Positions 2,325-32,000 of a stretch of 32,000 bases of DNA are shown here, piece after piece. Source of the stretch: Ruminococcus albus 7 = DSM 20455 (GTDB lineage: Bacteria > Bacillota > Clostridia > Oscillospirales > Ruminococcaceae); NCBI RefSeq assembly GCF_000179635.2, contig NC_014833.1, positions 840,001-872,000 of the forward strand, given 5' to 3'. The notes under the pieces are model-generated. The model made no database searches. It saw nothing but the letters and a program-made list of their open reading frames with translations, and had not been told where the DNA came from. The position numbers and the translations under genes are program-made. Each line of letters starts with the position of its first letter. Within the stretch, counting starts at the first letter, position 1.

Positions 2325-3617
2325 TTATCTGGCAGTAAGGACAAATGATCTTCTGTCGATATCATAGGTATCCCATTTACCGTTGATTTTGGCACATATA
2401 ACTATCTCATACTTATGACCGCGATACAGACTTGGCGACATATACTCATTAGAATCGGTATAAGCCTGAACTTTCCACTTGCCTGCGATCTTTACAGCAA
2501 CGCCGTACTCTTCAGCATCAGAAACTCTTGTCCAGAACATACGGAATCGGCGTGAATTCAGATCATACTCCATTGATAACAGACTTGGATAATAGCCCCT
2601 TCCCTGGGCATCAGTGACCCTGAATTTAATGCCGTTATCCAGAGCATAATTCATCGCCTCAGATTTTTTGTGAACAGTAATTTTAAGTTTCGGCAACGGC
2701 TTATAGCAATCATTCTCGTAATCGTATTTATCAAATACATGGCTTCCTATTTCAACTACACTTGAAGGTATAACTGCACCTTGAAGTGCTGTACAGTTTC
2801 CAAACACACCATTACCCAATTCAGTTACTTTATCCGGTATAGTTATATCTTTAAGACTTGTGCATCCGCAAAAGATATTGCTTTCGATAGACTTTAAATT
2901 TTCTGATAAAACAACACTCTTTAATTCTGTACAATATTCAAATGCCGATGATTTCAAAGAAGTAACTTTGTCAGGTATAACTATCGATTTCAATGACGAG
3001 CAAAATCCGAATACTCTTTCATCGACAGTCTTTAGTTTTTTTGATAAAGTTATGCTTTCAAGAGATGAACAACCCAGAAAAGCTGCTTTTCCAATAGAAA
3101 CAACTCTGTCAGGTATAACGATCTCTTTCAAAGCTTCACAATCGATGAATGCACCCTCACCGATAGTTTTCAAGTTATTCGATAAAGTTATATTTTCAAG
3201 ATTATCGCAGTCAAAAAAGGCATAAACACCAATGGATGTCACGCTGTCAGGCAGATCGATATCTACAAGACCATTGCAATCAGCAAATGCTTGTTCTCCT
3301 ATGATCTCCACACCATCGGGTATAATTATTTTTTCGATTTTTCTGCCATGAAATGCATCATCACAAATGGCAGTAACATATTCATCATTTATCTCCTCCG
3401 GTATCTCGACCACAGTATCACGACCCATGTATCCTGTTATACCGATAGTACCATCTTCAAGCACAGTGTAATAAAAATCACCGTATCTGAATTCCTCAGT
3501 TCTTTCCGCACTTGCAGATATAACTGTACTGCTGTTAACTGCCATATCAGGTACAGCTGCACCGCCAAATACGAATGTCAGCGCCAGCAGACCCGCCGTG
3601 ATTTTCTTGTTATTCAT
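2325..3617 (-). CDS. BspA-type leucine-rich-repeat secreted surface protein with diverged C-terminal conserved module
   Basis: The likely start is ATG at 3617 (MNNKKITAGLLALTFVFGGAAVP signal peptide) behind RBS AGGAGGT. About 10 repeats of IxIPDxVxxIGxxAFxxCxxLxxI. The C-terminus RFRMFWTRVSDAEEYGVAVKIAGKWKVQ...INGKWDT is a diverged copy of the shared module. Confidence 0.85.
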   Translation of the reverse strand: MNNKKITAGLLALTFVFGGAAVPDMAVNSSTVISASAERTEEFRYGDFYYTVLEDGTIGITGYMGRDTVVEIPEEINDEYVTAICDDAFHGRKIEKIIIPDGVEIIGEQAFADCNGLVDIDLPDSVTSIGVYAFFDCDNLENITLSNNLKTIGEGAFIDCEALKEIVIPDRVVSIGKAAFLGCSSLESITLSKKLKTVDERVFGFCSSLKSIVIPDKVTSLKSSAFEYCTELKSVVLSENLKSIESNIFCGCTSLKDITIPDKVTELGNGVFGNCTALQGAVIPSSVVEIGSHVFDKYDYENDCYKPLPKLKITVHKKSEAMNYALDNGIKFRVTDAQGRGYYPSLLSMEYDLNSRRFRMFWTRVSDAEEYGVAVKIAGKWKVQAYTDSNEYMSPSLYRGHKYEIVICAKINGKWDTYDIDRRSFVLTAR

Positions 3618-3803
3618 TCCATTACCTCCTGATTTTCTAAACAGATAAAACAAACGACATAAGATATCCGCTTATCCATGAGCATATATGTGCTATCATC
3701 CGGATAAGTATGAAAAATTATGTCGTTCGATAATTATTATATATCTTTTTAAATTGTATGTCAACAGGTTGTTACAAATTACTTTACAGTAACCTGTTAC
3801 ATA

Positions 3804-4076
3804 TTACTTAACAGTAACAGTCACAGCGTTCTTGATAGCGTTTGCAGTATCCCACTTGCCGTTTACTCTGGCTGCAATTGCAACTTTGTAAGTCTTGCCG
3901 GGAGTCAAACTCTTTGGAGTAGTATATGAAGTGCCAGTAATGTTCTTATCCTGAACCTTCCACTTGCCTGCCAGATAAACAGCTACGCCGTATCTATCAG
4001 CACCTTCGACCTTGTCCCATGTGAATCTTACCTGATGGTATTTTTTTCTTGCTATATTATTTTTAATTGAAAACAA
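3804..4076 (-). pseudogene. Orphan copy of the ~85-aa C-terminal module (no signal peptide or catalytic/LRR part; only a TTG start)
   Basis: YHQVRFTWDKVEGADRYGVAVYLAGKWKVQ...KVAIAARVNGKWDTANAIKNAVTVTVK is highly similar to the C-termini of the GH9 (20219-20480) and GH11 (23460-23730) enzymes. The frame closes immediately upstream and no ATG is present. Confidence 0.6.
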
Positions 4077-9270: not shown

Positions 9271-10293
9271 CATGGTTATCCCTTTAACACACCACAGATA
9301 ATTTACAATGCTGTCCAAATAAACAGACCTCAAAAACCGAAAAATATTGTATAATAGTGACAGAAACCGAAGGGAGCTGTCGCTATGTCAAAAAGATTTC
9401 CGAAACCTGAGATCACACTTGATGGGATATACTCAAAGTTCGCAGATGAAAGCTTTTGCAAGGATTTTCTGCTTGATATCCGCTTTGAAAAGGGCTTTGC
9501 CTGTCCGTTTTGCGGTGGCTCTGAGTACCGCAGGATAAGGTCACGCCATCAGCTGCGCTGCAAGTTCTGTAAAGCAGATATATCCGCCACAAACGGAACT
9601 TTTATGCACAGAACACATATTCCGCTCAGACTGTGGATAGTCACCGCATTCCTCATTATGAGCAACAAATGCAGTGTTTCTGCTGTTACGCTGATGAGGT
9701 CTTTGGGGGTGACCTACAAGACTGCATGGTACATCCTTCATCGCATCAGAAAAGCTATGAAATGCCGTGAAGAACGCTATTTGCTTGACGGGATCGTTGA
9801 ACTTGATGACACGTATCTCGGTGCTCCGACTCACGGTAAAAAGCGTGGTAGAGGTACTGAAAAAGTCAAAATGATCGTAGCTTTATCAAAGAACTCAGCA
9901 GGAAATCCCGAGTACGTTAAAATGAGCGATGTGCCGAATTTAAAGGGTATAACTGTTGGTAGATTTGCCAGGGATAATATCCGCGCAGGCTCGAAGATCG
10001 AGAGTGATAATGCTCGAAGTTACAAGAAACCGTTGGCACAGAAATACTTCCATGTTTTTGAAACATATGATCCGACAAGCGGTCAGCTGAACTGGATGCA
10101 TAAAGTTATATCAAACTTCAAAGCAATGATCATGGGAACTTACCACGGAAACGAAAAGATCCACACAGCGTTATATGCTGCCGAATACTGCTACAAATTC
10201 AACCGTCGTAAGCTGGGAAACAGTGCGTATTTAAGGCTTTTGGCTGCTTTGGTGCAGTAATCTTACTTGTGGTGTGTTAAGGGGATAACCATA
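9271..10293 (+). mobile_element. IS1595-family insertion sequence, copy 2 (1023 bp), nested in IS66 tnpC
   Basis: Same inverted repeats as copy 1. 8-bp target duplication ATCGAAAA at 9263-9270 and 10294-10301. Confidence 0.85.
9385..10260 (+). CDS. IS1595-family (ISXO2-like) DDE transposase
   Basis: 291 aa. It differs from the copy-1 protein at only two residues (L56Q, A171S) in the supplied translations. Confidence 0.9.
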   Translation: MSKRFPKPEITLDGIYSKFADESFCKDFLLDIRFEKGFACPFCGGSEYRRIRSRHQLRCKFCKADISATNGTFMHRTHIPLRLWIVTAFLIMSNKCSVSAVTLMRSLGVTYKTAWYILHRIRKAMKCREERYLLDGIVELDDTYLGAPTHGKKRGRGTEKVKMIVALSKNSAGNPEYVKMSDVPNLKGITVGRFARDNIRAGSKIESDNARSYKKPLAQKYFHVFETYDPTSGQLNWMHKVISNFKAMIMGTYHGNEKIHTALYAAEYCYKFNRRKLGNSAYLRLLAALVQ

Positions 10294-11243
10294 ATCGAAA
10301 ATGATGATGCTCCTGTCATTCATTTTGCCGTTGCAGTAGACCCACATTCTTGATGTCGTGGTAGGCTTTCGGCCTTCCTCGTGAAGCACCTGAACGGTCG
10401 TTTCATCGGCATGGATCATCTGCCCTGCGATAAGCGTCTCATGCATTTTCTCCACAATCGGCAAACACCATTTTTCGGCAGCAGTGCCTACCCAATTAGA
10501 CATAGTCGCTTTGAGCAGAGGTATGTTTTTGGAATTAAAGTCCTTTTCCTGACGGTGCAGAGGTACTGACTTTGCATATTTTTCGTAGATGATATGAGCC
10601 AGAAGTTCGGGAGAGCAATAGCTTCCCGGGATCATAGCGTGAGGATATGGCGCACGGATGATATGACAAGGTTCGTCCCTTTCTTCGGGCTTTTCTCCGC
10701 ACTCGGGACACTTGTACTTATGTACTATATGCCTGCGGATATGATATTTTGGCGGCGTAAATATAAGTTCATCGTAAGCCTTTTCGGGAGTCAGTTCTTC
10801 CATTTCGGCGCCGCATATTTCGCATACCGGGTTGTCAATTTTGTGATGTTCTTCTTTTACAGGCAGATTGTTCATCCATTCATCGTGAGTGCGTTTTTTC
10901 TTGCGCTTGTGTTCGGGAACAGTAATTGTTTCGGCAGATTTAGCTGCGGATTTTTCTTCATTGTTTCCGAACATGGAAAGCTGAACACCGAACTCCTTTT
11001 CCATAACAACAGATGTCTGCTCTGTTTTTCTTCCGAATATCTGCTTTCTGAACCACGCTAACTGCTGATTGGCAAGTGCTAGTTCTTCCTTGAGAACAGC
11101 GTTTTCATTACGGAGCGATACAATTTCCGATGTCATATTTGGTTCGGACATAAAGCACCCCTCCGTTCGTTATGATACTTTAATGATACCACGAAAAGAG
11201 GGGCTTTTCAAGCACATATTCTGAATATTCGGTAAGTATTGCC

Positions 11244-17480: not shown

Positions 17481-20400
17481 ATGCACAAGAAAATGAAACG
17501 TATCGTTGCAGGGCTTGTGGCAATTACCGGTGCTTTATCGGCAACAGCCGCATCTGCACCTATGAGTGTGTTTGCAAAAAATGAACAGATAATTATTCAG
17601 TCTGACTTCAATGCAGGAATGGGTCTTCCCTGGCGCACATTCGAGAATGCACCGGCACGGCAGGACTTCGATATTTCAGACGGCACTTACAATATAACGA
17701 TACAGAATAACGATGGTCCCGAGTCAAGATGGGATCTTCAGTTCCTTTACAAAAATTTCTATATACAAAAAGGTCATACTTACAAGGTACACTGGAAGGT
17801 CAATTCTTCCAATGAGGGTGAGCTGTATACTAGGATCGGTAATTACGGCGGAACTGTTGAAGTTTGGCACAACAACTGCGGCAATGATGATTTCAATCAG
17901 ACGTGGGAATGCGTAAAGATCGCTAAAGGCGACAACACCTTCGATGCTGAGTTTACAGCTAAAGAAGATATGGATCGTGCTTGCTGGATATTTGATTACG
18001 GCGGACAGGGTCAGTATCAGCCGGTAGATTGCTTCCCCAACGGTACGGTCCTCAAATTCGACGATCTGTCTTTGATCGACACTACTTCCGGGGGCTGTAT
18101 AATCGATTTCATTCCTAACGATTGGGGCATTGTAAGACCCGAAAGCAACGTTCGTCTGAATCAGATCGGTTACTATCCTCAGCTGGAAAAGAGGGCTTCT
18201 TATGTTACCGATGCTGATATGCCACTGACTTTTGAGATACGTGACAGATCGGGCAACGTAAAGTACACAGGCAAGACGAAGGTATTCGGCAGCGATCCTG
18301 ATTCGGGTACAGGTAAGGATACAGTTGTTAATTCGGTCACAAGATACAAGGACTCGGGTGCCAACGTACATATCATTGATTTCTCTGATTTCAGAACTGT
18401 GGGCGAGTACACTATATTCGTTAAGGATACAGTCGGCGTAAGCGGCACTCAGGTGATGGGTTCTAAGAAAGTAAACGATACAAGGCTAAGCGGTGATAAG
18501 CTTTTATGGACAAATCCCGTTACTATGAAAACTTATACGATGAACGAGAGCAGTACATTCAGGATAGACAGACAGATCTATGATGATCAGCTGCTGAGGG
18601 ATTCCATGAACTACTTCTATCAGAACCGCTCAGGAGTCCCGATAAAGTCTGAGTACATCACATCAGGTGATAAGTCCGCACTGTCACACCTTAAATATGG
18701 TCATAACCCCGATATGGCTTATGTACAGAGCAAATGGGTAAAGACTTACGAAGATGACTTCTCTGATGGCGAGAAGGATAAGAAGATCGACGTTACAGGC
18801 GGATGGTACGCTGCAAGCGACCACGGTAAGTACGTTGTCGAAGGCGGTTTCTCCGTATGGACACTTCAGAACGCTTATGAGTTCTCCAAGAGGAGCGGCA
18901 ATACTCGCAAGTGGACTGACGGCACTATAGCTGTCCCCGAAAATAAGGATAATGCTCCCGATATACTGGATGAAGCAAGGGTAGAGCTGGAGTGGATGTT
19001 CAAAATGATAAATGAGGACGGCTTTGTATATCATTCAGTGCAGGACTATAAGTGGGCAGATATTCCGATCAGGTTAGGGCCCATATACTGTACGGACCCC
19101 CCAATGGAGTACACTTATCCTTACCGTATCGTCAGACCTCCTACGTATGCAGCCACATTCAACATGATCGCTTGTGCTGCACAGGCTTCACGTCTGTGGA
19201 AGGGCATAGATGATGACTTCGCAAAAGAGTGTCTGCAAAATGCACAGAACAGCTGGAAGGCTATCATGGCTAAGCAGTCCAATTGGAACGTTACAAGTGG
19301 CTATTACTATGATGATCCTTACTTTGCTCCCAGTGAATCCGGCGGAAACAACTTTTTCGGTGACACCTATGTAGTTGACGATGCTTACTGGGCAGCTTGT
19401 GAGCTTTATGCTACAACAGGGGACTCGGCTTACTATGGCTTCTTAAAAAACTATAAAAATTATAATGATCCGTCAGGTCAGGATAAGGCATTCAGCCTGA
19501 CTTCCTGCCTGAGCGGTGGTGAGAACAACGGTTCGTTCGGTTCCTTCAATTGGGGCAATACTGCGGGTCTGGGTACCCTTTCACTCTACCTGAGCGACAA
19601 GACATCTTCTGCTGACAGGAAGACTATTGTCAATTCTATCAAAAATATTGCTGACCAATATATTATTCAGATGAGTAAAGAAGGTATGGGCATACCTTAC
19701 AAGAGTGCGACTGTCGGGGGCTATATCGGTATCGGTGATGGAGATGTGTACACAGGTTATGAATACGGCTCCAACTCATTCGTTATCAACAACGCTATGG
19801 TCCTTGCATATGCTTATGATACTGATAACAGCAAATATATTTATCGGAACGGTGCTGCCGAAGCACTTGATTACCTCTTCGGACGCAACGGTCTGGGCTT
19901 CTCTTATGTATCAGGCTACGGCGATAAGGCAATGAGATCGCCACACCACAGATACTGGGCACAAAGTATTGATCCGTACTTCCCGGCGGCACCCTCAGGT
20001 GTTCTTGCAGGCGGTCCATGCTCAGATCTGTATCATGATAAATATCTTCGTGGTCTCGGCTATAAAAGAGGCACTTTAGCTGATCAGAAGTGCTATGTTG
20101 ACAGTGCAGAGGCATGGTCTGTAAATGATGTTTCCGGCAGCTGGAATGCTCCTCTGGTCTGGATGTCATCATTCATGAACGATCGTTTCGGCGGTCCGAA
20201 ACCAGTCCCCTATCCTACCAACATTAAGGTCGATTACAGTGAGGAGTATCATCAGGTAAGATTTACCTGGAACAAGGTGGAAAACGCTGACAGATACGGC
20301 ATAGCAGTTTATCTGGCAGGCAAGTGGAGAGTTCAGAAACAGGATATCACAGGCACTACCTACACTTCTCCCAAAAATCTGACTCCCGGCGTAACTTATA

Positions 20401-20483
20401 AGGTAGCGATTGCCGCAAGAGTGAACGGCACATGGGATACTGAAAATGCTATCAAACGTGCTTGTACTGTTACTATAAAGTGA
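17481..20483 (+). CDS. Multidomain glycoside hydrolase family 9 protein (signal peptide, CBM4/9-like module, Ig-like CelD_N module, GH9 domain, conserved C-terminal module)
   Basis: ATG at 17481 follows RBS AGGAGGG. Signal peptide MHKKMKRIVAGLVAITGALSATAASA. GH9 signature 1 SYVSGYGDKAMRSPHHR is intact. GGWYAASDHGKY and YVDSAEAWSVNDVSGSWNA are GH9 motifs with substitutions. C-terminus is YHQVRFTWNKVENADRYGIAVYLAGKWRVQ... Confidence 0.9.
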   Translation: MHKKMKRIVAGLVAITGALSATAASAPMSVFAKNEQIIIQSDFNAGMGLPWRTFENAPARQDFDISDGTYNITIQNNDGPESRWDLQFLYKNFYIQKGHTYKVHWKVNSSNEGELYTRIGNYGGTVEVWHNNCGNDDFNQTWECVKIAKGDNTFDAEFTAKEDMDRACWIFDYGGQGQYQPVDCFPNGTVLKFDDLSLIDTTSGGCIIDFIPNDWGIVRPESNVRLNQIGYYPQLEKRASYVTDADMPLTFEIRDRSGNVKYTGKTKVFGSDPDSGTGKDTVVNSVTRYKDSGANVHIIDFSDFRTVGEYTIFVKDTVGVSGTQVMGSKKVNDTRLSGDKLLWTNPVTMKTYTMNESSTFRIDRQIYDDQLLRDSMNYFYQNRSGVPIKSEYITSGDKSALSHLKYGHNPDMAYVQSKWVKTYEDDFSDGEKDKKIDVTGGWYAASDHGKYVVEGGFSVWTLQNAYEFSKRSGNTRKWTDGTIAVPENKDNAPDILDEARVELEWMFKMINEDGFVYHSVQDYKWADIPIRLGPIYCTDPPMEYTYPYRIVRPPTYAATFNMIACAAQASRLWKGIDDDFAKECLQNAQNSWKAIMAKQSNWNVTSGYYYDDPYFAPSESGGNNFFGDTYVVDDAYWAACELYATTGDSAYYGFLKNYKNYNDPSGQDKAFSLTSCLSGGENNGSFGSFNWGNTAGLGTLSLYLSDKTSSADRKTIVNSIKNIADQYIIQMSKEGMGIPYKSATVGGYIGIGDGDVYTGYEYGSNSFVINNAMVLAYAYDTDNSKYIYRNGAAEALDYLFGRNGLGFSYVSGYGDKAMRSPHHRYWAQSIDPYFPAAPSGVLAGGPCSDLYHDKYLRGLGYKRGTLADQKCYVDSAEAWSVNDVSGSWNAPLVWMSSFMNDRFGGPKPVPYPTNIKVDYSEEYHQVRFTWNKVENADRYGIAVYLAGKWRVQKQDITGTTYTSPKNLTPGVTYKVAIAARVNGTWDTENAIKRACTVTIK

Positions 20484-20514
20484 TAGACTTCATTGATCCA
20501 ATTTATTAAAAACA

Positions 20515-23169: not shown

Positions 23170-23303
23170 AAATAACACCTCATGTTTTGAGTCGATTTAC
23201 TGACACGGACAGACCTCTGTCAAAGTGAAATTGAGGTCTGTCCAGATTACCGTTACAAATTATATCACATTTCCATGTAAATTTCAATATGATATTATAA
23301 AAA

Positions 23304-23445
23304 ATGGCTATCCCCTTAACACACTGCACGCAAAATCACTGCACCAAAGCAGTCGATAGCCTTAAATACGCACTGTTTCCAAGTTTACAGCAGTTGGATC
23401 AGTAGCAGTATTCGGCAACATATAACGCTGTGTGGATCTTTTCGC
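23304..23445 (-). mobile_element. Truncated, diverged third IS1595-family copy (right-end ~140 bp only, inverted orientation)
   Basis: ATGGCTATCCCCTTAACACACTGCACG...CACTGCACCAAAGCAG...AGCAGTATTCGGCAACATATAACGCTGTGTGGATCTTTTCG aligns by eye (mostly matching, with scattered mismatches) to the reverse complement of 10141-10293. Homology ends 11 bp before the xylanase stop codon. Confidence 0.75.
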
Positions 23446-23456
23446 CTACTCAGTTA

Positions 23457-24512
23457 TCACTCTACAGTAAAAGTCACAGCGTTTTTGATAGCATTTGCAG
23501 TATCCCATTTGCCATTAACTTTGGCTGCGATAGCTACGTTGTAGGTCTTGCCCGGGGTGAGGTTCTTGGGAGTAGTATATTCTGTATCGGTGATACTCGC
23601 CTCCTGAACTCTCCACTTGCCTGCCAGATAAACAGCTACGCCGTAACTGTCAGCACCATTTACAGCGTCCCAAGTAAATCTCATCTGCTTGTACTGGCTG
23701 TCATATTCCATCTGTATGTTCTTAACGGAATCATCTTTATGATGTCCGCAGTCACAGATGCCTCGTGGATACATATTCATAGAAACTTCAACCTGACCAT
23801 CGCTCTCCCAACCTTCAACGCTGAAAGAAATATCGTACAGGTTCCCCACCTTCATACCCAGGTCCTCCCAAGCCTTGAAGTGTTTGGAAACGCTGATAGT
23901 ACCCTTGGTTCTCGTGTTCTGACGTATGCTTATATACTGTGTGAAATACCTGTCGCCTTCGATGGTATAGGAATTTTTGTTTATAGTATATACCTTGTAC
24001 TCACTTCCGTCAATATTAACGGAACCCTTGTACTGTGCAGAAGCAGACTGCGCAGGTGACCAGTTCTTCCAGTCTTCAATGATGTAGTACTCTACCAGAG
24101 GATTCTGCGCCCAGCCGTAGATACCGATCCTGGCGTTACCGGATGAACCTGCATACCAGATGCAGTCGTAGTCACAGTAGAAATTACCATAGTCCTTGTA
24201 AGTCTTGGGATTATTCAGACCCCAGCGAAGACCACGATTAGTAATGAAGTTTCCTCTCGTGTTGTTAGGACCACACTTCCACTGTGCGCGGAAACCACCG
24301 TCATTTTCGTGCAGTGTCATTGTAGAAGAATTATTGGTATCTGCCTGCCAGATCTCGTGGTGGTAGTCGTTGTACCAGCCGACTTCCTGTGTGTGTGACG
24401 GGCTCGTAGTGAGCGTCTTTGCAGCAGATGCAGTAACTGATGTTATAATAGGTGAAACCATCAGCACACCGGCAACAAGAGCGCCTAAAACACGTTTTGA
24501 AACATTTTTCAT
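23457..24512 (-). CDS. Glycoside hydrolase family 11 endo-1,4-beta-xylanase with conserved C-terminal module
   Basis: Signal peptide MKNVSKRVLGALVAGVLMVSPIITSVTASA after RBS GAGGAG. GH11 hallmarks YGWAQNPLVEYYIIEDW (nucleophile Glu) and SVEGWESDG (acid/base Glu). C-terminus is YKQMRFTWDAVNGADSYGVAVYLAGKWRVQ... Confidence 0.92.
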   Translation of the reverse strand: MKNVSKRVLGALVAGVLMVSPIITSVTASAAKTLTTSPSHTQEVGWYNDYHHEIWQADTNNSSTMTLHENDGGFRAQWKCGPNNTRGNFITNRGLRWGLNNPKTYKDYGNFYCDYDCIWYAGSSGNARIGIYGWAQNPLVEYYIIEDWKNWSPAQSASAQYKGSVNIDGSEYKVYTINKNSYTIEGDRYFTQYISIRQNTRTKGTISVSKHFKAWEDLGMKVGNLYDISFSVEGWESDGQVEVSMNMYPRGICDCGHHKDDSVKNIQMEYDSQYKQMRFTWDAVNGADSYGVAVYLAGKWRVQEASITDTEYTTPKNLTPGKTYNVAIAAKVNGKWDTANAIKNAVTFTVE

Positions 24513-25184: not shown

Positions 25185-25886
25185 TCATCTTGTGATATTA
25201 GCAATAGCGGCGGATATAACATCTTCTACGCCGCAGACTTTATCAATTTTATCCTTGTCGGGAGCATTCCTTAGTTCTGCGATACCTGCTCTCCACAAAA
25301 CCAGAGTATTTACATTCAGTGAATCTATCCGCTGTGACATGGCACTGTTGCGGGTGTACATATCAGATATCATCATAATACCTTGTGATGCTATGTTTGC
25401 CGAGATTACAAGGTCGTTTATTTTTTTATCTGCAAGGATCTGGTAGTATTTCCAGTCGGTATCTTTATCTTTGTTTTTCATATGTTCACTCAATGCGGCT
25501 GATGCTTCATTAAGCTCCTGTATGCAGCACTCCAGCACTTGTTTCATGGTGTCAAGCAGCATATTCTCTTTGTATAGTCCTATGTATATTTCCTGAAAGC
25601 TATCGGATATCCTCTGGGCTTCTTTGTCAGCTTTTTCAGCATTGTCAATGAGTCTTGCGTAGCTTATAGTTCCCACAAATCCCTTGTATTTTGCCAGACC
25701 GTTTATCTTTAGCTGGTCTGAAGCAAGGGTCAGGACATTTATAGCTTTGTCAGGCATCCTATCCTGCTGTATTCTGAATAACATATCTGATGTATCAGCT
25801 ATTCTCTTCTGAACATCTCCTGCATATGAGGGGAGAAGTTCAAAGGTCATCATATCGGGGGTATATTTCTTGGTACTATTCAGCAT
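25185..25886 (-). CDS. Short TelA-like (toxic anion resistance/YaaN-KlaB family-like) helical protein; gene 4 of the operon
   Basis: 233 aa, all-helical in character. ADKKINDLVISANIASQGIMMISDMYTRNSAMSQRIDSLNVNTLVLWRAGIAEL parallels the conserved TelA core (..DKR.HDL..S.Q...Q...I.....N.....KI.S......PLWK.Q..), recalled from memory. Its start overlaps the upstream stop (ATGCTGA). The ORF call is solid; the family call is moderate. Confidence 0.65.
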   Translation of the reverse strand: MLNSTKKYTPDMMTFELLPSYAGDVQKRIADTSDMLFRIQQDRMPDKAINVLTLASDQLKINGLAKYKGFVGTISYARLIDNAEKADKEAQRISDSFQEIYIGLYKENMLLDTMKQVLECCIQELNEASAALSEHMKNKDKDTDWKYYQILADKKINDLVISANIASQGIMMISDMYTRNSAMSQRIDSLNVNTLVLWRAGIAELRNAPDKDKIDKVCGVEDVISAAIANITR

Positions 25887-26770
25887 GACCTGTTCACCTT
25901 AGCAAGCTTGATATACTTATCAAGATCTATCTTCTTAAAAAAATTATAACTGTCACAATTTATATCCTGACCAAATATACCCATCTGAACTGGTGATGAA
26001 ATGACTATATCAGTATCGGGTATATTGAAGATATCACGGAACTGGTCTTCCGTAAGAGGCTGACCATAATAGGGATACCAGTTCTTTTCGTGGAATGACA
26101 TGGACTCCATCACCCTCAGCACGACACGTCGTAAAAACATAACCGAGCACATGGGGTAGAAGCATTTTTTCATATTAATAGGTTCCGACGGGCTTTTCAG
26201 CCTTATCTCGGAGTTGAACACCTCGTCATTGCTGTAGCATGAGCTGAACACTTTAAGGTCAACACCTATGCCGTATTCTTCAAGCAGTTTTATCAGACTG
26301 AGAGTCAGCGCGCCGCGGTTGGTGACTGCCTGCTCTAAGGTGTGAATTGAATATGCCAGATTGAACCATATAGTAACGAATTTTTTCTCTCTTGCTCTTG
26401 TGAGCCTGTACATTGTCTTCGGAGTACCTGCCACGTACGCGGGAATATTTGGGTGAGAGCCTGCCATTGCCTTTTCCTGCCTGCGTCTGTAAGTTCTTAT
26501 CGGCATAGTCTTTTCAAATTCCTTCAGCATTTCCAGTGTAATGTCATAATTACCCGTATATCCGCCGATAAGATAATCTACAGCATTATCAAAGGTATCC
26601 TCGGGAAAATCCGGACGTCTGATGATACTGTGCTGTTTGAGAAATATTTTGTCGTTTACTTTAGGTTTGCTGAGTATATACATCTGCATATCACTCAGAC
26701 TGTTGAACGCCGCATTGTATACAGTCATTTTTTTGTATTGGTATACTTTGAGGTTCATAAATTCTCTCAT
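25880..26770 (-). CDS. Unknown protein, partner immediately downstream of the AAA_5 NTPase; gene 3 of the operon
   Basis: 296 aa. ATGA start/stop overlap with the NTPase gene. No motif I can assign. The strand-helix pattern KKFVTIWFNLAYSIH...RGALTLSLIKLLEEYGIGVDLKVF could be a degenerate vWA/Rossmann-like core without a DxSxS MIDAS. Confidence 0.75.
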   Translation of the reverse strand: MREFMNLKVYQYKKMTVYNAAFNSLSDMQMYILSKPKVNDKIFLKQHSIIRRPDFPEDTFDNAVDYLIGGYTGNYDITLEMLKEFEKTMPIRTYRRRQEKAMAGSHPNIPAYVAGTPKTMYRLTRAREKKFVTIWFNLAYSIHTLEQAVTNRGALTLSLIKLLEEYGIGVDLKVFSSCYSNDEVFNSEIRLKSPSEPINMKKCFYPMCSVMFLRRVVLRVMESMSFHEKNWYPYYGQPLTEDQFRDIFNIPDTDIVISSPVQMGIFGQDINCDSYNFFKKIDLDKYIKLAKVNRSC

Positions 26771-28911
26771 CGTCTTGTTTCTCCGTTTCGTATAGCGTTA
26801 ACTATATTGCTGAACACGCTGAATATCCCGACACTTTTTCTTTCACGACCGTCGTAGAACTTTGCCATTTCTCTCTGTAGAAATGCAAGATATTCGCTGT
26901 CCTTGGTCTCAACGAATTCATATCTGACGATCGCCTCGACATCGTAACTCTGGTGATCAAGGTACTTCTTTATGCTGGTTGCATCACGGGTGGTGAATAT
27001 ACCCGGAGCTGCTGTCTGATTTTCTTTGCTCCATGCAGTGGTGGCATTGCGGAAGACCTCAGCGAATTCAAACCACTGAGGATAATTACAAAGTATGTTC
27101 TCTTCAAGTCTGTTATCGTAATCAACGTATATCGCTGTGAATCTCTGCATGAGAGATTCCTCTATCTTCTCACGGGTGCTGTAATTCCTGTCAGCGCCGT
27201 CACCTGCGGTGTTGCCTGCTGCTATGATACGGAAATTCGGGTGGCGCATTACTCGCTCGCCGTTAGGGAAGCAGTAGCTTGCATTTTTGGAATTGGACAT
27301 AAAGCTGTTGAGTTTTACTGCTGCCCTGATATTGCCATTATCAAATTCATCGCAGAAAACTATACCGCCGTATTTGTATGCTCGGTAGAATGCAGGATAG
27401 TTGTATCCGCCGTCCGCTGTCTGGAATCCCAGCAGGTCATATTCCTCGTTTATGTAGCCGATATCCAGATATTCCAGTCCCAACAGCTTGGCTATCTGCC
27501 CTACAAGAAAAGTTTTTCCGCAGCCGGATGGGCCTATCATATATGGGTTTGAATCTTCGATTACAGCGGTGATTATATCATCGAAATGCTCATGATAAAG
27601 AGTATTGTTTTCATCGATATACTTCTGCTTTTTCTCCATGAGTTTTGCGAACCTGTCTTTGAAGGGATAGGATTCATCAAAGAAGAAATTAGGTGTCATA
27701 TCAGCAGGCTCGGTGCATCTCTGGGCATTTATCTGAACTATGGTTGGGTGCACTCCTGCCGCCACCTGTATTGGTGCGGCAGCTGCTTCAGTTTTTTCGG
27801 CGTCGAAATTTTTGCTGAACTCATCAACGCGTATTATTCTGTTCACCAGATCACTGCTCTTGTTTACCTCTGATATGATATTTTTCAGTTCGCCGTTGTT
27901 AAGCATTGACGAGGCTCTGTCAATAGCTTTGTTTGCCTCCGTGTTTATGCGGAAAAGCTCTGCGGCTGTGTTGTCCTTTATGCCTGAAGCCAACAGTTTA
28001 AGCTCTCTTATCTTACTGTCCGCAGAATCTATGACATCTCTGATCAGCTTATCCTTTTCAAACACTATACTGTCATGTTCTTCGTTCAGAAAAGCATCAA
28101 AAGATTCTTTCAACTTGAATTCCGCATTCTTTGCTTCTCTTGTAAGTTTTTCCGTCTCACTAAGTGTGAGATCCTTGATAGTCTTTTCATTCTGCTCAAC
28201 AAATCTTTTGAAGCTGTCGAGGCGATCTTCTGTAAGGTCGAGAGTGTGCTTTGCGTTCTCAAGGTTTTCCTTGCTGTTTTTCAGCAACATCTCAGACCTT
28301 GCTATCCTTTCTTCACTGATATCGTATATTCCGCAAGCCATTCGCGCATAGCTGAGAAGTTTTTCACATTCGATCTCTTTGTCATGAGCACTGCATATCT
28401 TGATAGCACCGCTTATAAGCGATGAGGCAAAGCTTTTCTCATTGTTGTGGTACTGTCTGAGCTCACAGCTGAAAGTATTGATATAATAGATGTTTTTTTC
28501 TGCTGTTGGTATATCTGCAATGGTGCACATGGTATCGATGTAGATCTGCTTGTCACTGAAACATAAATACATCTCTTTAGTGAACAATCCTGAATGATAG
28601 ATGCCGTCCTTTTCAAATATTTTCAAAAATACTGCATTTGCAAACCTGAAATCTTTGGTTGCTTTTCCGAGAGGAAGTACGGTGCGGTAGATATCCTCTG
28701 CATCTTTCATTATTTCTATAGGCGATTTTTCACTTCGGGAAGTTATAATGCTGTTGACCAGCTTTGAAAGTGTTTCTTCCGAGCCGAATCTGTTTTTATC
28801 GGGCTCCCGCTTTATCTCACTGAGGTATATACTCAGCGGAACATATTTATCGTCCTTTTTTAACGCTGCCTTGACCGCCTGCAATATTGCGTCTATCCTG
28901 TTTTTTGTCAT
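26767..28911 (-). CDS. Coiled-coil-containing AAA_5 (MoxR/McrB-like) NTPase; gene 2 of the operon
   Basis: 714 aa. Walker A GPSGCGKT (27511-27534), Walker B IVFCDEFD (27340-27363), sensor region IIAAGNTAGDGAD (27190-27228) and LMQRF. The N-terminal ~190-aa domain is unassigned. A long E/K/L-rich heptad-like segment covers about aa 195-345 (27879-28329). Confidence 0.85.
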   Translation of the reverse strand: MTKNRIDAILQAVKAALKKDDKYVPLSIYLSEIKREPDKNRFGSEETLSKLVNSIITSRSEKSPIEIMKDAEDIYRTVLPLGKATKDFRFANAVFLKIFEKDGIYHSGLFTKEMYLCFSDKQIYIDTMCTIADIPTAEKNIYYINTFSCELRQYHNNEKSFASSLISGAIKICSAHDKEIECEKLLSYARMACGIYDISEERIARSEMLLKNSKENLENAKHTLDLTEDRLDSFKRFVEQNEKTIKDLTLSETEKLTREAKNAEFKLKESFDAFLNEEHDSIVFEKDKLIRDVIDSADSKIRELKLLASGIKDNTAAELFRINTEANKAIDRASSMLNNGELKNIISEVNKSSDLVNRIIRVDEFSKNFDAEKTEAAAAPIQVAAGVHPTIVQINAQRCTEPADMTPNFFFDESYPFKDRFAKLMEKKQKYIDENNTLYHEHFDDIITAVIEDSNPYMIGPSGCGKTFLVGQIAKLLGLEYLDIGYINEEYDLLGFQTADGGYNYPAFYRAYKYGGIVFCDEFDNGNIRAAVKLNSFMSNSKNASYCFPNGERVMRHPNFRIIAAGNTAGDGADRNYSTREKIEESLMQRFTAIYVDYDNRLEENILCNYPQWFEFAEVFRNATTAWSKENQTAAPGIFTTRDATSIKKYLDHQSYDVEAIVRYEFVETKDSEYLAFLQREMAKFYDGRERKSVGIFSVFSNIVNAIRNGETRR

Positions 28912-28921
28912 ATCCTTCCAC

Positions 28922-30037
28922 CTATTCGTTATCTTTATGTAAGTATCTGTCTATTATTTCAACACCGGGTATACCAAAAAGATCATCCTTGATTTTTTTG
29001 ATCTCTCCATCGTTTATATGTCGGTAATAATATCCTTCCTGTGAGCTGTCCAGGCTCTTTATGATTCTTGTGCAGCACAGTTTTGATTGTACAAGCAGCC
29101 TGGTTTTTTCTCTGAATATTTCATGAACTACCGATATCTCACTTTTTCTGCCGTTGCAGAGTTCTTCCTCATATATCTGAGTTATCATTTCGCTGTCATT
29201 GCAGTAAATTGTTTCTTTATCCGTCATGAAGATCTTTTCGCCCCAAGGCAATAAAGCTCCCTGAGCATAATTGCCGCCGATCTCGCATATCAGCTTCACT
29301 TCCTCAGACATTTCAGTTTTTTCAAGCTCGGGAGAGATCTCCTCACAGAATATCACTTGTCCGTCTTCGATGATCATACATCTGAGGCTGTTCTGTAATA
29401 GATCGTATATATATTCATGTCGAAGCTCCCTATCGGTAAAACTTTGGGTTATCACTTCGGTTTTTGAATGGGCATACCTGAGCGTGATCTGTGCTGTGTG
29501 AGTGCCATTGAATAGATTTCCCAGAGTATAAACATATTCGTTACCCTGTGAAGTTATGCTGCATGGCAGTTGTTTATTTATTCCGTTGACAGTACAGGAT
29601 ATCATATATCTGTTTCTGTTCCCTTTGATGTTTGAAAGCCTAAATGTTGCTTCTGCATCACTGTATATCTTTGAAAGAAAGTATTCGATGAAATTTTTGG
29701 AAAACATACCTGTGCCGAACGTCAGTACCTTTTCTTCATGCTTACTGCACTCAGCAATAAAGTTGAAACGCGTGGGGAAACTAAGTTTTTTACGTTTCTC
29801 AATTATCTCGGAAGTATAGTCGTCGAAACAGCTTTCGGGGTAATTGAGATACAATCGGTCTGCTGTTTTTGCCAGCATGGAGAAGTAGTCGTCATATTCA
29901 CATAGATTGATATACTTATTTCCGTTATATATCACTATCAGTGCCTGTGTGTTATCAGGCATGGTGTAATATCTTATCAGATCTGCTTTTTCTATCTGAG
30001 ATATTTCCAACTGAGTTCTGCTCATGAATGGTGTCAT
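28922..30037 (-). CDS. Unknown protein; gene 1 of the operon
   Basis: 371 aa. The ATG is 10 nt after RBS AGGAG (30048-30052). There is a 10-bp gap containing GGTGGAAGGA before the next gene. No signal peptide, TM segment or motif I recognise. Confidence 0.75.
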   Translation of the reverse strand: MTPFMSRTQLEISQIEKADLIRYYTMPDNTQALIVIYNGNKYINLCEYDDYFSMLAKTADRLYLNYPESCFDDYTSEIIEKRKKLSFPTRFNFIAECSKHEEKVLTFGTGMFSKNFIEYFLSKIYSDAEATFRLSNIKGNRNRYMISCTVNGINKQLPCSITSQGNEYVYTLGNLFNGTHTAQITLRYAHSKTEVITQSFTDRELRHEYIYDLLQNSLRCMIIEDGQVIFCEEISPELEKTEMSEEVKLICEIGGNYAQGALLPWGEKIFMTDKETIYCNDSEMITQIYEEELCNGRKSEISVVHEIFREKTRLLVQSKLCCTRIIKSLDSSQEGYYYRHINDGEIKKIKDDLFGIPGVEIIDRYLHKDNE

Positions 30038-30072
30038 AGTTTACGCACTCCTGTACGCGTTAGAATTATAAT

Positions 30073-30105
30073 ATGGTTATCTTTTAGCACACCACATGAT
30101 CTTAC
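30073..30105 (+). repeat. Solo IS1595-like terminal inverted-repeat remnant
   Basis: ATGGTTATCTTTTAGCACACCACATGATCTTAC versus the IS left end ATGGTTATCCCTTTAACACACCACAGATAATTTAC. Most positions match, with one small gap. The flanking sequence is unrelated to the IS interior. Confidence 0.4.
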
Positions 30106-30189
30106 ATTATTATAAGCGTTTATAAAGGATCTGTTATCTATCAGGTAAATTATGTGGTAACTTAGGTGCGCATGACTGATATCCATTAA

Positions 30190-30362
30190 ATATTATATCA
30201 TATGTATCAATAAAAGTAAAGCAACTGCAACGTGCTTGAATGTTAGCTTTAGTTGCGAAGCCTCACACGACTAAAGTCGCGTGCTTCCAATAGTGTCCTA
30301 TAGGACACGCCCACTTTAGGAGGGCGGACTACGTTTCTACCATACAGCCTGAACTCAGAAAA
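30190..30362 (-). ncRNA. Candidate omega-RNA (reRNA) scaffold/right end of the TnpB element (boundaries approximate)
   Basis: It lies immediately 3' of the tnpB stop. Dense hairpins on the minus strand: CGCCC-n10-GGGCG, GTGTCC-TATA-GGACAC, GAAGC[CACGCGAC-TTTA-GTCGTGTG]AGGCTTC and GCAAC-n21-GTTGC. The complementary ACTTTAGT / ACTAAAG segments suggest a pseudoknot. Confidence 0.45.
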
Positions 30363-31688
30363 TTATGCTGTTGGAGCAATAAATTCCGCATTCAGGTTAA
30401 CTAAGGTAGAGAACGTGCAGGTGCTTCTCTTACTGCATTGAGGGACTTTAGCCTCAATGAGCAACCTTGAATTCTCATCCAAGGATTTTAATATTTCACG
30501 TATGAAGTATCTTGCCCCTATATTATACGAAGCAGATAGATCACAGTTGTAGGTCTTGCCATTTTGAAATTTGCATAGCTCATAGGTATTGAAACCACCG
30601 AATTTACCACGAAGTACAAAACCACTGCCATCGTAGGCAAGGCGTGACGTATTCCATGCACAGATATGGCTTACTCTCATACCTAGTCTGTGAGCTTTAT
30701 TCGTTACAATAGACTGAACTTCCTGACTGCGCCACAGCTTGAGTTTCTGCTTTTTAGAACCGCGGACCTTACCGTTCTTGTCTAAATGCTCAAATACAAT
30801 AACATCTGCATTATAAAGAACAGCTATATCTACGATGCAGGCAGCAGTTTTAGTGGCAATGTCGTGATTGATTCCTTTGGCTTTTGCCCAAAGCCTTGGT
30901 GTTTTATAGTTACCATGCTGCTGAGCTTTTTTTATACGGTTAACACAATGCATAAGATGGTCTGTTTCTTTGGTAAGCTTATAAAAATGCCTTCCAAGAA
31001 TAGTGCCATCTGAACGCATTACGGAAATCGTAGCTGCGGTGTTTATTCCAAGATCTACAGCAACAATGGTCTGTTCATACACAGATATATCTGCAAGTTT
31101 GACCTTTTCCTCAAACGGAAAGTCCAAAAACCACTCCTTGCCTCGTTTTTGAAGTGTTGGAGCGCATTGCTTGCGAAAATTGCAATGTCTGTATATATAA
31201 TCCATATCAGACTTTTTAAAGTTTATCGTTATCCAGTCCCATGTATTACGGATGTAGACTTTGATCTGGGCAGTATAATCACCGGTCTGATTGTACATTC
31301 CTGTACGATACATTGACGGAAATGTATATCCTGCTTTTGGATACGATGGTTCTCTGCCTACAGGATCTTTTATCCAATTGGCGAGATTGCTTTTGTAAGA
31401 TGATACCTTGCCTATAGCTTCGTTAATAGCACCACGGCGCAGATAGCTTGGCATCTTATAGAATTTTGTATCAAAATCATAAATTGGATCGGGATTATCT
31501 TTTGTAGAATGGATCAGTGTTTCAATATATGTGAGTTTACTCACCCCTTTGAATGAAACAATGTTATCCCATTTATCAAGACATACTTTGATAAGGTAAT
31601 CTACAGCATGTCTGTATACGATAACGGTATCTTTAAAGATGTTGTTGTAATGCTTGATCTTAACGCTATAAGTCGTATATATCTGCAT
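30363..31688 (-). CDS. tnpB: IS200/IS605-family TnpB-like RNA-guided endonuclease (OrfB), with no TnpA nearby
   Basis: 441 aa. The RuvC triad context is IVAVDLGIN (D), DVIVFEHLD (E) and YNCDLSASYNIGARY (D, matching the hADxNAAxNI motif). RBS GGAGGGAG upstream. The usual CxxC...CxxC zinc finger between E and the last D appears degenerate. Confidence 0.85.
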   Translation of the reverse strand: MQIYTTYSVKIKHYNNIFKDTVIVYRHAVDYLIKVCLDKWDNIVSFKGVSKLTYIETLIHSTKDNPDPIYDFDTKFYKMPSYLRRGAINEAIGKVSSYKSNLANWIKDPVGREPSYPKAGYTFPSMYRTGMYNQTGDYTAQIKVYIRNTWDWITINFKKSDMDYIYRHCNFRKQCAPTLQKRGKEWFLDFPFEEKVKLADISVYEQTIVAVDLGINTAATISVMRSDGTILGRHFYKLTKETDHLMHCVNRIKKAQQHGNYKTPRLWAKAKGINHDIATKTAACIVDIAVLYNADVIVFEHLDKNGKVRGSKKQKLKLWRSQEVQSIVTNKAHRLGMRVSHICAWNTSRLAYDGSGFVLRGKFGGFNTYELCKFQNGKTYNCDLSASYNIGARYFIREILKSLDENSRLLIEAKVPQCSKRSTCTFSTLVNLNAEFIAPTA

Positions 31689-31852: not shown

Positions 31853-31886
31853 TTCTGTGTTTGTGTCACGCGTGACACAAACAGAA
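31853..31886. repeat. Long palindrome upstream of tnpB (candidate left-end subterminal hairpin)
   Basis: TTCTG(TG)TTTGTGTCACG|CGTGACACAAACAGAA forms 16 bp of pairing with a 2-nt bulge. The central 22 nt are a perfect palindrome. Confidence 0.6.
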
Positions 31887-31920
31887 TTCAATTTTTCTTT
31901 TTATGAGGTTTAATATGCAG

Positions 31921-31954
31921 AAAGACAGCTAAGCTTACACACTTAGCTGTCTTT
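31921..31954. repeat. 13-bp stem hairpin near the window end
   Basis: AAAGACAGCTAAG-CTTACACA-CTTAGCTGTCTTT. There is no adjacent T-tract on either strand, so it is not a classical terminator. Confidence 0.5.
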
Positions 31955-32000
31955 CACTTAAGAATTATAGTATCTGACATTCTTAATTGAGGCTTACAGT

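Follow-up and report, generated by a model that had tools for sequence, protein, structure and literature searches.

Mobile-element debris on both sides of a putative native promoter upstream of a four-gene operon in Ruminococcus albus 7

The DNA analysed here, referred to as the window, is a stretch of 32,000 nucleotides from Ruminococcus albus 7 = DSM 20455 (contig NC_014833.1, positions 840,001 to 872,000); coordinates count from its first letter, and the loci compared with it carry L numbers. A four-gene operon on the minus strand, with its ATG at 30037, is separated by a non-coding stretch from a tnpB gene on the same strand. An earlier note on this DNA had read the stretch as a junction of debris from two mobile elements, and both elements were found there, namely an IS1595 derivative and the right end (RE) of an IS200/IS605-type tnpB. 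The features of the region, together with two intact IS1595-family copies located elsewhere in the window, are as follows.

31688..30363, minus strand: tnpB, 441 aa, of a tnpA-less IS200/IS605-type element
30362..30038, minus strand: non-coding stretch of 325 nt between tnpB and the operon ATG
30255..30470, minus strand: omega-RNA-like structured 3′ region and RE, the latter at 30257-30255; 5′ limit approximate
30237..30256, minus strand: first 20 nt of the RE flank, presumed omega-RNA guide, GCAACTAAAGCTAACATTCA; also the start of the conserved upstream block
30221..30255, minus strand: conserved inverted repeat directly upstream of the -35, CAACT (30255-30251)...CAGTTGC (30227-30221)
30192..30220, minus strand: putative native sigma-70-type promoter of the operon, TTTACT-17-TGaTATAAT, 10/12 in the scan, extended -10
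30220-30215, 30200-30199 and 30197-30192, minus strand: its predicted elements, -35 TTTACT, TG and -10 TATAAT, with a 17-nt spacer
30073..30186, no strand assigned: probable IS1595-derived miniature insertion, ATGG...CCAT, 114 nt, or 116 nt if each side is extended by one base, as in the intact copies
30142..30186, minus strand: probable decayed second terminal repeat, AATGGATATC...GCGCACC...CCACATAATTTAC, with ~10 extra nt
30109..30137, minus strand: promoter-like site inside the insertion, ATAACA-17-TATAAT, 10/12 in the scan
30073-30096, plus strand: well-kept terminal inverted repeat, ATGGTTATCTTTTAGCACACCACA, 24 nt, outer end toward the operon
30038..30072, minus strand: native proximal leader, with Shine-Dalgarno AGGAG at 30052-30048, then ATG 30037
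25185..30037, minus strand: four-gene operon encoding a 371-aa protein without family, a 714-aa AAA_5 ATPase, a DUF7192 protein and a TelA-like protein
~856-1880 and 9271-10295, plus strand: two intact IS1595-family copies, 97% identical to each other

The gene order of the operon was common to all orthologous loci. Its first protein had only ten homologues in a collection of 5.8 billion proteins, while the second gene matched the CobS-like phrog_249, the third corresponded to DUF7192/phrog_1909 and the fourth was TelA-like. No meaningful match to a defence system was obtained for the operon in a PADLOC search, and a search of a plasmid collection gave no match for the IS1595 copies or for the operon upstream region. 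The locus was 99.97% identical to contig JHYT01000063.1 (GCA_000621285.1), and one operon orthologue carries the NCBI name Ruminococcus albus. The neighbourhood of the four-gene cassette differed in every strain (L018, L021, L024, L026, L028 and L030). Genes near the operon in the window encode GH11, Cel124 and dockerin proteins. Repeated modules of ~90-240 nt, 64-79% identical and common to several carbohydrate-active enzyme genes on both strands, were also observed at 1-250, 2465-2560, 3802-4040, 20245-20485 and 23455-23695; they presumably represent a shared binding or fibronectin-type domain.

The organisation of the upstream region became apparent from its orthologues. Loci L018/L020, L021-L023 and L030-L033, with protein identities to the window of 81%, 76% and 75%, respectively, pass directly from ...TATAATAT plus 17-22 nt into GCGTACAGGAG. 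The upstream order in these orthologues of 75-81% identity is CAACT…CAGTTGC-TTTACT-17 nt-TGGTATAAT, followed by 17-22 variable nt and the proximal leader GCGTACAGGAGTGCGTAAACTATG, which is unvarying across all R. albus-group orthologues. The window keeps both blocks (30255-30188 and 30058-30037), with ~111-116 extra nucleotides between them. In the alignments this insertion was absent from all of the loci just named and present in the window, L028, L029 and L037. The protein identity of L028/L029 to the window is 99%, and L037 is 96.7% identical to it over 8.9 kb; the insertion itself showed 97.4% identity between the window and L028.

A consensus scan of the upstream region detected 10 promoter-like matches, compared with 8.3±2.7 expected by chance in such AT-rich DNA. 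As these matches occur at chance frequency, the argument for a promoter rests on conservation. The TTTACT-17-TGaTATAAT site at 30220-30192 has a counterpart at the matching position in orthologues of 41-99% protein identity, including those that have neither the insertion nor tnpB. Its -35, spacer and -10 columns were unvarying in the alignment of close orthologues, while the adjoining leader was variable. A TTTACT/TTGACA-17/18-TGnTATAAT arrangement was also found by the scan on the operon strand of L018, L024 and L026, being the only or the best operon-strand match in each, and L024 and L026 share only 41-45% protein identity with the window gene. In the window 154 nt separate the -10 from the ATG, versus 42, 58 and 75 nt in orthologues, and the insertion starts 5-6 nt past the -10 hexamer. 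The site at 30220-30192 on the minus strand, upstream of the insertion, is thus the best-supported candidate for the operon promoter. The earlier note had suggested a comparison with orthologous loci lacking the IS remnant or TnpB; it is in these loci, too, that the putative native promoter was found. Directly upstream of the -35, the arms of the inverted repeat (CAACT…N24…AGTTG) were unvarying in orthologues of 75-99% identity and enclosed a variable sequence, which makes the repeat at 30255-30221 a candidate operator.

The promoter had previously been sought next to the IS1595-like repeat. Both minus-strand TATAAT hexamers described there are present, at 30070-30065 and 30114-30109; neither is kept in the orthologues. 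These show TTATAT, TTTTAA or CATTAA at the position of the proximal hexamer, and they lack the distal one because it lies inside the insertion. It is very unlikely that the repeat supplies the -35 of the proximal hexamer, or that a hybrid or IS-borne promoter drives the operon. Outward and hybrid promoters of IS elements are a well-known phenomenon, and the geometry would be right, with a -35 falling at 30093-30088 inside the repeat; this -35, however, would read GGTGTG or TGGTGT, with only 1-2/6 consensus matches and no TG extension, and the site did not appear in the scan output. A much better promoter candidate, which is conserved, is, moreover, intact 120 nt upstream. The internal ATAACA-17-TATAAT site, with its score of 10/12, also speaks for an IS-borne promoter; it possibly represents a weak neo-promoter. 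The earlier suggestion that IS-derived sequence may modulate the operon is supported in part; the assignment of the promoter to the repeat-flanking hexamers is not. Since the IS-derived sequence lies between the putative promoter and the ribosome-binding site, it almost certainly belongs to the transcribed leader, where it could modulate expression.

The IS1595-like repeat begins 36 nt upstream of the operon ATG, in agreement with the coordinates given before. The 24-nt ATGGTTATCTTTTAGCACACCACA matches the IS1595 terminal inverted repeat ATGGTTATCCCYTTAACACACCACA in 22/25 columns with one gap, and a weaker similarity to the IS end extends for ~35 nt. Its local alignment score was 33, while the best chance score, obtained from 200 Markov-1 random sequences of 32 kb with both strands scored, was on average 21.1 (sd 2.0, maximum 27); a further local test gave p<0.0002. 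The similarity is therefore real, and the proviso that AT-rich DNA might match equally well by chance did not apply. Each of the two intact copies in the window encodes a 291-aa DDE transposase matching the IS1595 model NF033547 (E=1.3e-47 and 8.9e-48; 162-163 bits, cutoff 75). They have inverted repeats of ~27-30 nt, of which 27/30 positions are complementary, and are flanked by 8-bp target duplications, ATATATTT and ATCGAAAA, as read from the flanks. A one-ended IS1595 fragment, decayed to a similar degree as the insertion upstream of the operon, was also observed at 23297-23444, with the Cel124/dockerin gene on one side and the GH11 gene on the other; it comprises a right-end repeat with 4 substitutions and ~120 nt of interior, and is 82-87% identical to the intact copies.

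The repeat upstream of the operon had been regarded as a solo terminal repeat without any IS interior. The orthologue alignments instead place it at one end of the ~114-nt insertion, at whose other end the repeat probably recurs, inverted and decayed. This promoter-proximal end reads AATGGATATCAGTCATGCGCACCTAAGTTACCACATAATTTAC; of its first ten bases, 9 agree with the IS terminus AATGGTTATC. When the far end was aligned end-to-end, shuffles gave p=0.0043 against the other end of the insertion (36 nt) and p=0.0045 against the IS left end (35 nt), and p was ~0.005 for the inner block; all of these alignments anchor on the ATGG at 30186, which is the insertion boundary, and in inverted orientation. 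A direct local alignment of the two ends gave p=0.08-0.14. Because of this non-significant result, and because an indel of ~10 nt is needed, the assignment of the second end is probable, not proven.

The same non-significant comparison favours a one-ended remnant, in which only 30073-30096 would be IS-derived, the other ~80-90 nt being interior of an unknown IS1595 relative or deletion filler, and the far end resembling the repeat by chance. MAFFT aligned ATTTAATGGATATCA with the orthologue leader ATTCCTTGAAAATCA (10/15) and moved the left boundary inward by 15 nt, to a point following TATCA at 30172, so the boundary of the insertion is uncertain by ~15 nt. The candidates for a target duplication, TAATATTT (30195-30188) and TTATAATT (30071-30064), agree at only 6/8 positions and consist of A/T only, with a chance probability of ~14%; and the fragment at 23297-23444 is a true one-ended IS1595 remnant nearby. 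Against this stand the end-to-end alignments (p ~0.004), which meet at the same ATGG, inverted and exactly at the insertion boundary, and the terminal 10-mer. The interior, too, showed no resemblance to the resident IS past ~35 nt when the region was aligned to the whole IS with lax gap settings and scored against shuffles (46 and 55 versus 39±5, maximum 54). A one-ended remnant with a chance resemblance at its far end therefore appears unlikely, and the two-ended insertion is the preferred reading.

The insertion has no coding capacity, its sole open reading frame, of 50 aa, being interrupted in L028 and L037. This frame (30186..30034) spans the insertion, overlaps the operon start by ATGA and could be translated from a leaderless start located 6 nt past the -10; a stop at codon 10 in L028/L037 and the lack of a family match led to its rejection. 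A leader hairpin formed by the two ends of the insertion occurred in the minimum-energy fold, but was also rejected, as the fold was no better than that of shuffled sequences (z=-0.9).

Neither the window nor any of the retrieved loci contained a further copy of the insertion. Among 185,579 species genomes (one genome per species), a 21-mer taken from the repeat variant had one match, and in a 23-mer scan of JGI metagenomes the sole match was the same locus; both scans used exact matching, which diverged copies would escape. The one genome match, an exact 21-nt match to GGTTATCTTTTAGCACACCAC at 3677-3697 of L027 (Patescibacteria MAG JBMCWH010000006.1), is intergenic, with no IS1595 transposase nearby, and is probably a coincidence, since ~0.3 chance matches were expected. 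As no second copy was found, membership of a multi-copy MITE family is unsupported and this assignment was rejected. In these searches the insertion was a single orphan copy.

An IS1595-related MITE has been described in Haloquadratum walsbyi; this ISHwa6-related element has 165 bp, 25-nt inverted repeats and 8-bp direct repeats (PMC3852290, Table 4). Like MITEs and internally deleted copies derived from IS1595-family elements, the insertion is small (114-116 nt), lacks coding capacity and lies at an AT-rich site, and one of its ends, probably together with the other, is similar to the ~25-nt terminal inverted repeat found in an IS1595-family element of the same genome. Unlike them, it occurs in single copy, with no sibling in the window, the species genomes or the JGI metagenomes; its probable second end is badly decayed, and no 8-bp target duplication can be demonstrated.

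Insertions of IS elements or MITEs between a promoter and its gene can alter expression, as with the Correia elements in Neisseria and the hybrid promoters of IS ends. The insertion resembles these in that it occupies the leader, or the region close to the promoter, of a downstream operon and shares the direction of transcription. In contrast to them, no functional promoter, IHF site or RNase III target was evident in it, and the putative native promoter is intact upstream.

The second element was described earlier as a tnpB with an omega-RNA-like tail, and both the gene (30363-31688, minus strand) and a structured 3′ region are present. The 441-aa protein scored 69.8 bits (E=2.6e-19) with NCBIfam guided_TnpB, which is below the 100-bit cutoff, and its matches to Pfam OrfB_IS605 and Cas12f1-like_TNB were likewise weak and below cutoff. 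Its precomputed annotation is PF27142/PF01385. There were 7084 homologues at E<=1e-20, some fused to or located beside a Y1 TnpA, and such neighbours or fusions occur in homologues at 84-86% identity. The annotation and the Y1 TnpA context support its assignment to TnpB of IS200/IS605 type. A look-up of the exact sequence of this protein returned no record. A 442-aa ORF at 2325-3653 was considered as a second tnpB copy in the window and proved unrelated.

The RE was delimited by comparing tnpB copies from four independent contexts, namely the window, L008-L010, L034 and L035; their colinearity extends to ...GTGTGAGGCTTC(A/G)C and is lost beyond it. For the source strain, Logan unitigs start at 30286, exactly 30 nt inside the RE point, corresponding to a k-1 overlap into the repeat. 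As homology to the tnpB-free orthologues starts at 30255, the RE adjoins the native promoter block and not the IS1595 remnant. The RE had been thought to abut the repeat, with the tail beginning ~90 bp further on; the stop at 30257-30255 leaves ~160 nt to the repeat and ~68 nt to the far insertion end, and the native promoter block lies between.

The 3′ region of tnpB folds strongly (-85.6 kcal/mol, z=-4.9), and compensatory changes are visible in the stems of its alignment; both fit a putative omega-RNA, as expected. No Rfam family was matched, either at the gathering threshold over the whole window or at E<=1 in 29950-30750. It is established for TnpB that the guide lies at the RE flank, and on this basis 30237-30256 is presumed to act as the omega-RNA guide. 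The presumed guide region coincides with the putative operator repeat. The left-end boundary of the element could be placed only to ~31901, from unitig ends. A perfect 16-nt palindrome, GTGTCACGCGTGACAC, is located at this end (31863-31878) and is unvarying in all copies compared; it is probably the left-end hairpin recognised by a Y1 transposase.

The element resembles other IS200/IS605 tnpB elements with omega-RNA in that its strongly folded, conserved 3′ region overlaps the end of tnpB and has a sharp boundary, that its TnpB belongs to a huge family with some members beside Y1 TnpA, and that its flank starts where the guide would. It differs in that the copy in the window has no tnpA and no Rfam model matches, and in that its left and right flanks derive from different ancestral loci, with the breakpoint at the RE.

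With tnpB and the operon on the same strand, and with no terminator-like site detected by the scan between 30362 and 30037, the operon might be driven substantially by read-through from tnpB/omega-RNA across the RE; transcription of omega-RNAs is known to run into the flank. Processing, however, normally reduces omega-RNAs to short species. The putative native promoter is intact, operon and insertion are retained in L028/L029, where tnpB is absent, and the tnpB of L037 has a 212-nt internal deletion, so that a substantial contribution of read-through is judged to be quite unlikely.

L028 and L029, in which the insertion is present and tnpB absent, indicate that the tnpB junction is a separate event. 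Upstream of the operon they read ...ACAGAATGA|CAACT, which is homologous to the corresponding sequence of L030, L018 and L021. L037, a metagenomic strain, has both junctions, and its deletion, seen at L037 1-144 / 141 onward, removes window positions 30758-30547 from within tnpB. The left flank of the window tnpB (31902-32000) is the same locus as in L008-L015 from rumen metagenomes, whereas the right flank in those loci consists of a 142-aa ORF and ClpX and not of the operon (L008 from 2900 onward). The same left flank combined with a different right flank indicates a rearrangement in one lineage, with its breakpoint exactly at the RE. The reciprocal junction would read L028-like ...ACAGAATGA, tnpB, ...ACAGATTCGATG/ClpX. 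Comparison of the loci thus shows the putative promoter to predate the insertion, the insertion to be lineage-specific and the tnpB junction to be a separate event at another point.

The most probable arrangement, to which we assign a probability of roughly 0.78, would comprise four parts in the following order on the minus strand. The right end/omega-RNA of the tnpA-less IS200/IS605-type tnpB would end at 30257-30255 and be followed by the operon's own upstream block of ~68 nt (30255-30188), with the inverted repeat and the predicted sigma-70-type extended -10 promoter at 30220-30192. The third part would be a non-autonomous IS1595 derivative (30186-30073) whose terminal inverted repeat is well kept at one end and decayed at the other, and the fourth the native Shine-Dalgarno leader, leading to the ATG. 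Transcription would still proceed from the native promoter, with a predicted start at ~30185, i.e. in the first bases of the IS-derived sequence, and the insertion would have lengthened the 5′ leader from ~35-70 nt to ~150 nt. The insertion may have arisen as a MITE-like copy that the resident IS1595 transposase moved in trans, or from a full IS whose interior was lost in place, and would have decayed since. It may alter mRNA stability, translation or promoter escape and may add the weak promoter at 30137-30109; read-through from tnpB/omega-RNA may add transcripts.

Mechanistically, the insertion is an ordinary mobile-element scar and nothing new. A more far-reaching possibility is that the mobile-element events rewired the control of the four-gene cassette, with the 114 nt serving as a regulatory leader and TnpB-omega-RNA or read-through RNA interfering with the promoter or regulating it, much as RNA-guided repressors derived from TnpB do. 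Such regulation could be imagined because the omega-RNA guide region coincides with the operator-like repeat; we consider this rewiring highly improbable. If true, the mini-IS would part the promoter from the native initially transcribed region and add a regulatory leader.

For the annotation of the locus, the comparison suggests a correction: the operon promoter would be placed at 30220-30192 and not beside the repeat, and the leader would be described as containing a lineage-specific, IS1595-derived insertion. The strains also provide a natural allele series, with neither element (L018, L021 and L030), with the insertion only (L028 and L029) and with both (the window and L037), in which the effects of a mini-IS in the leader, or of an upstream tnpB, on expression in R. 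albus may be compared.
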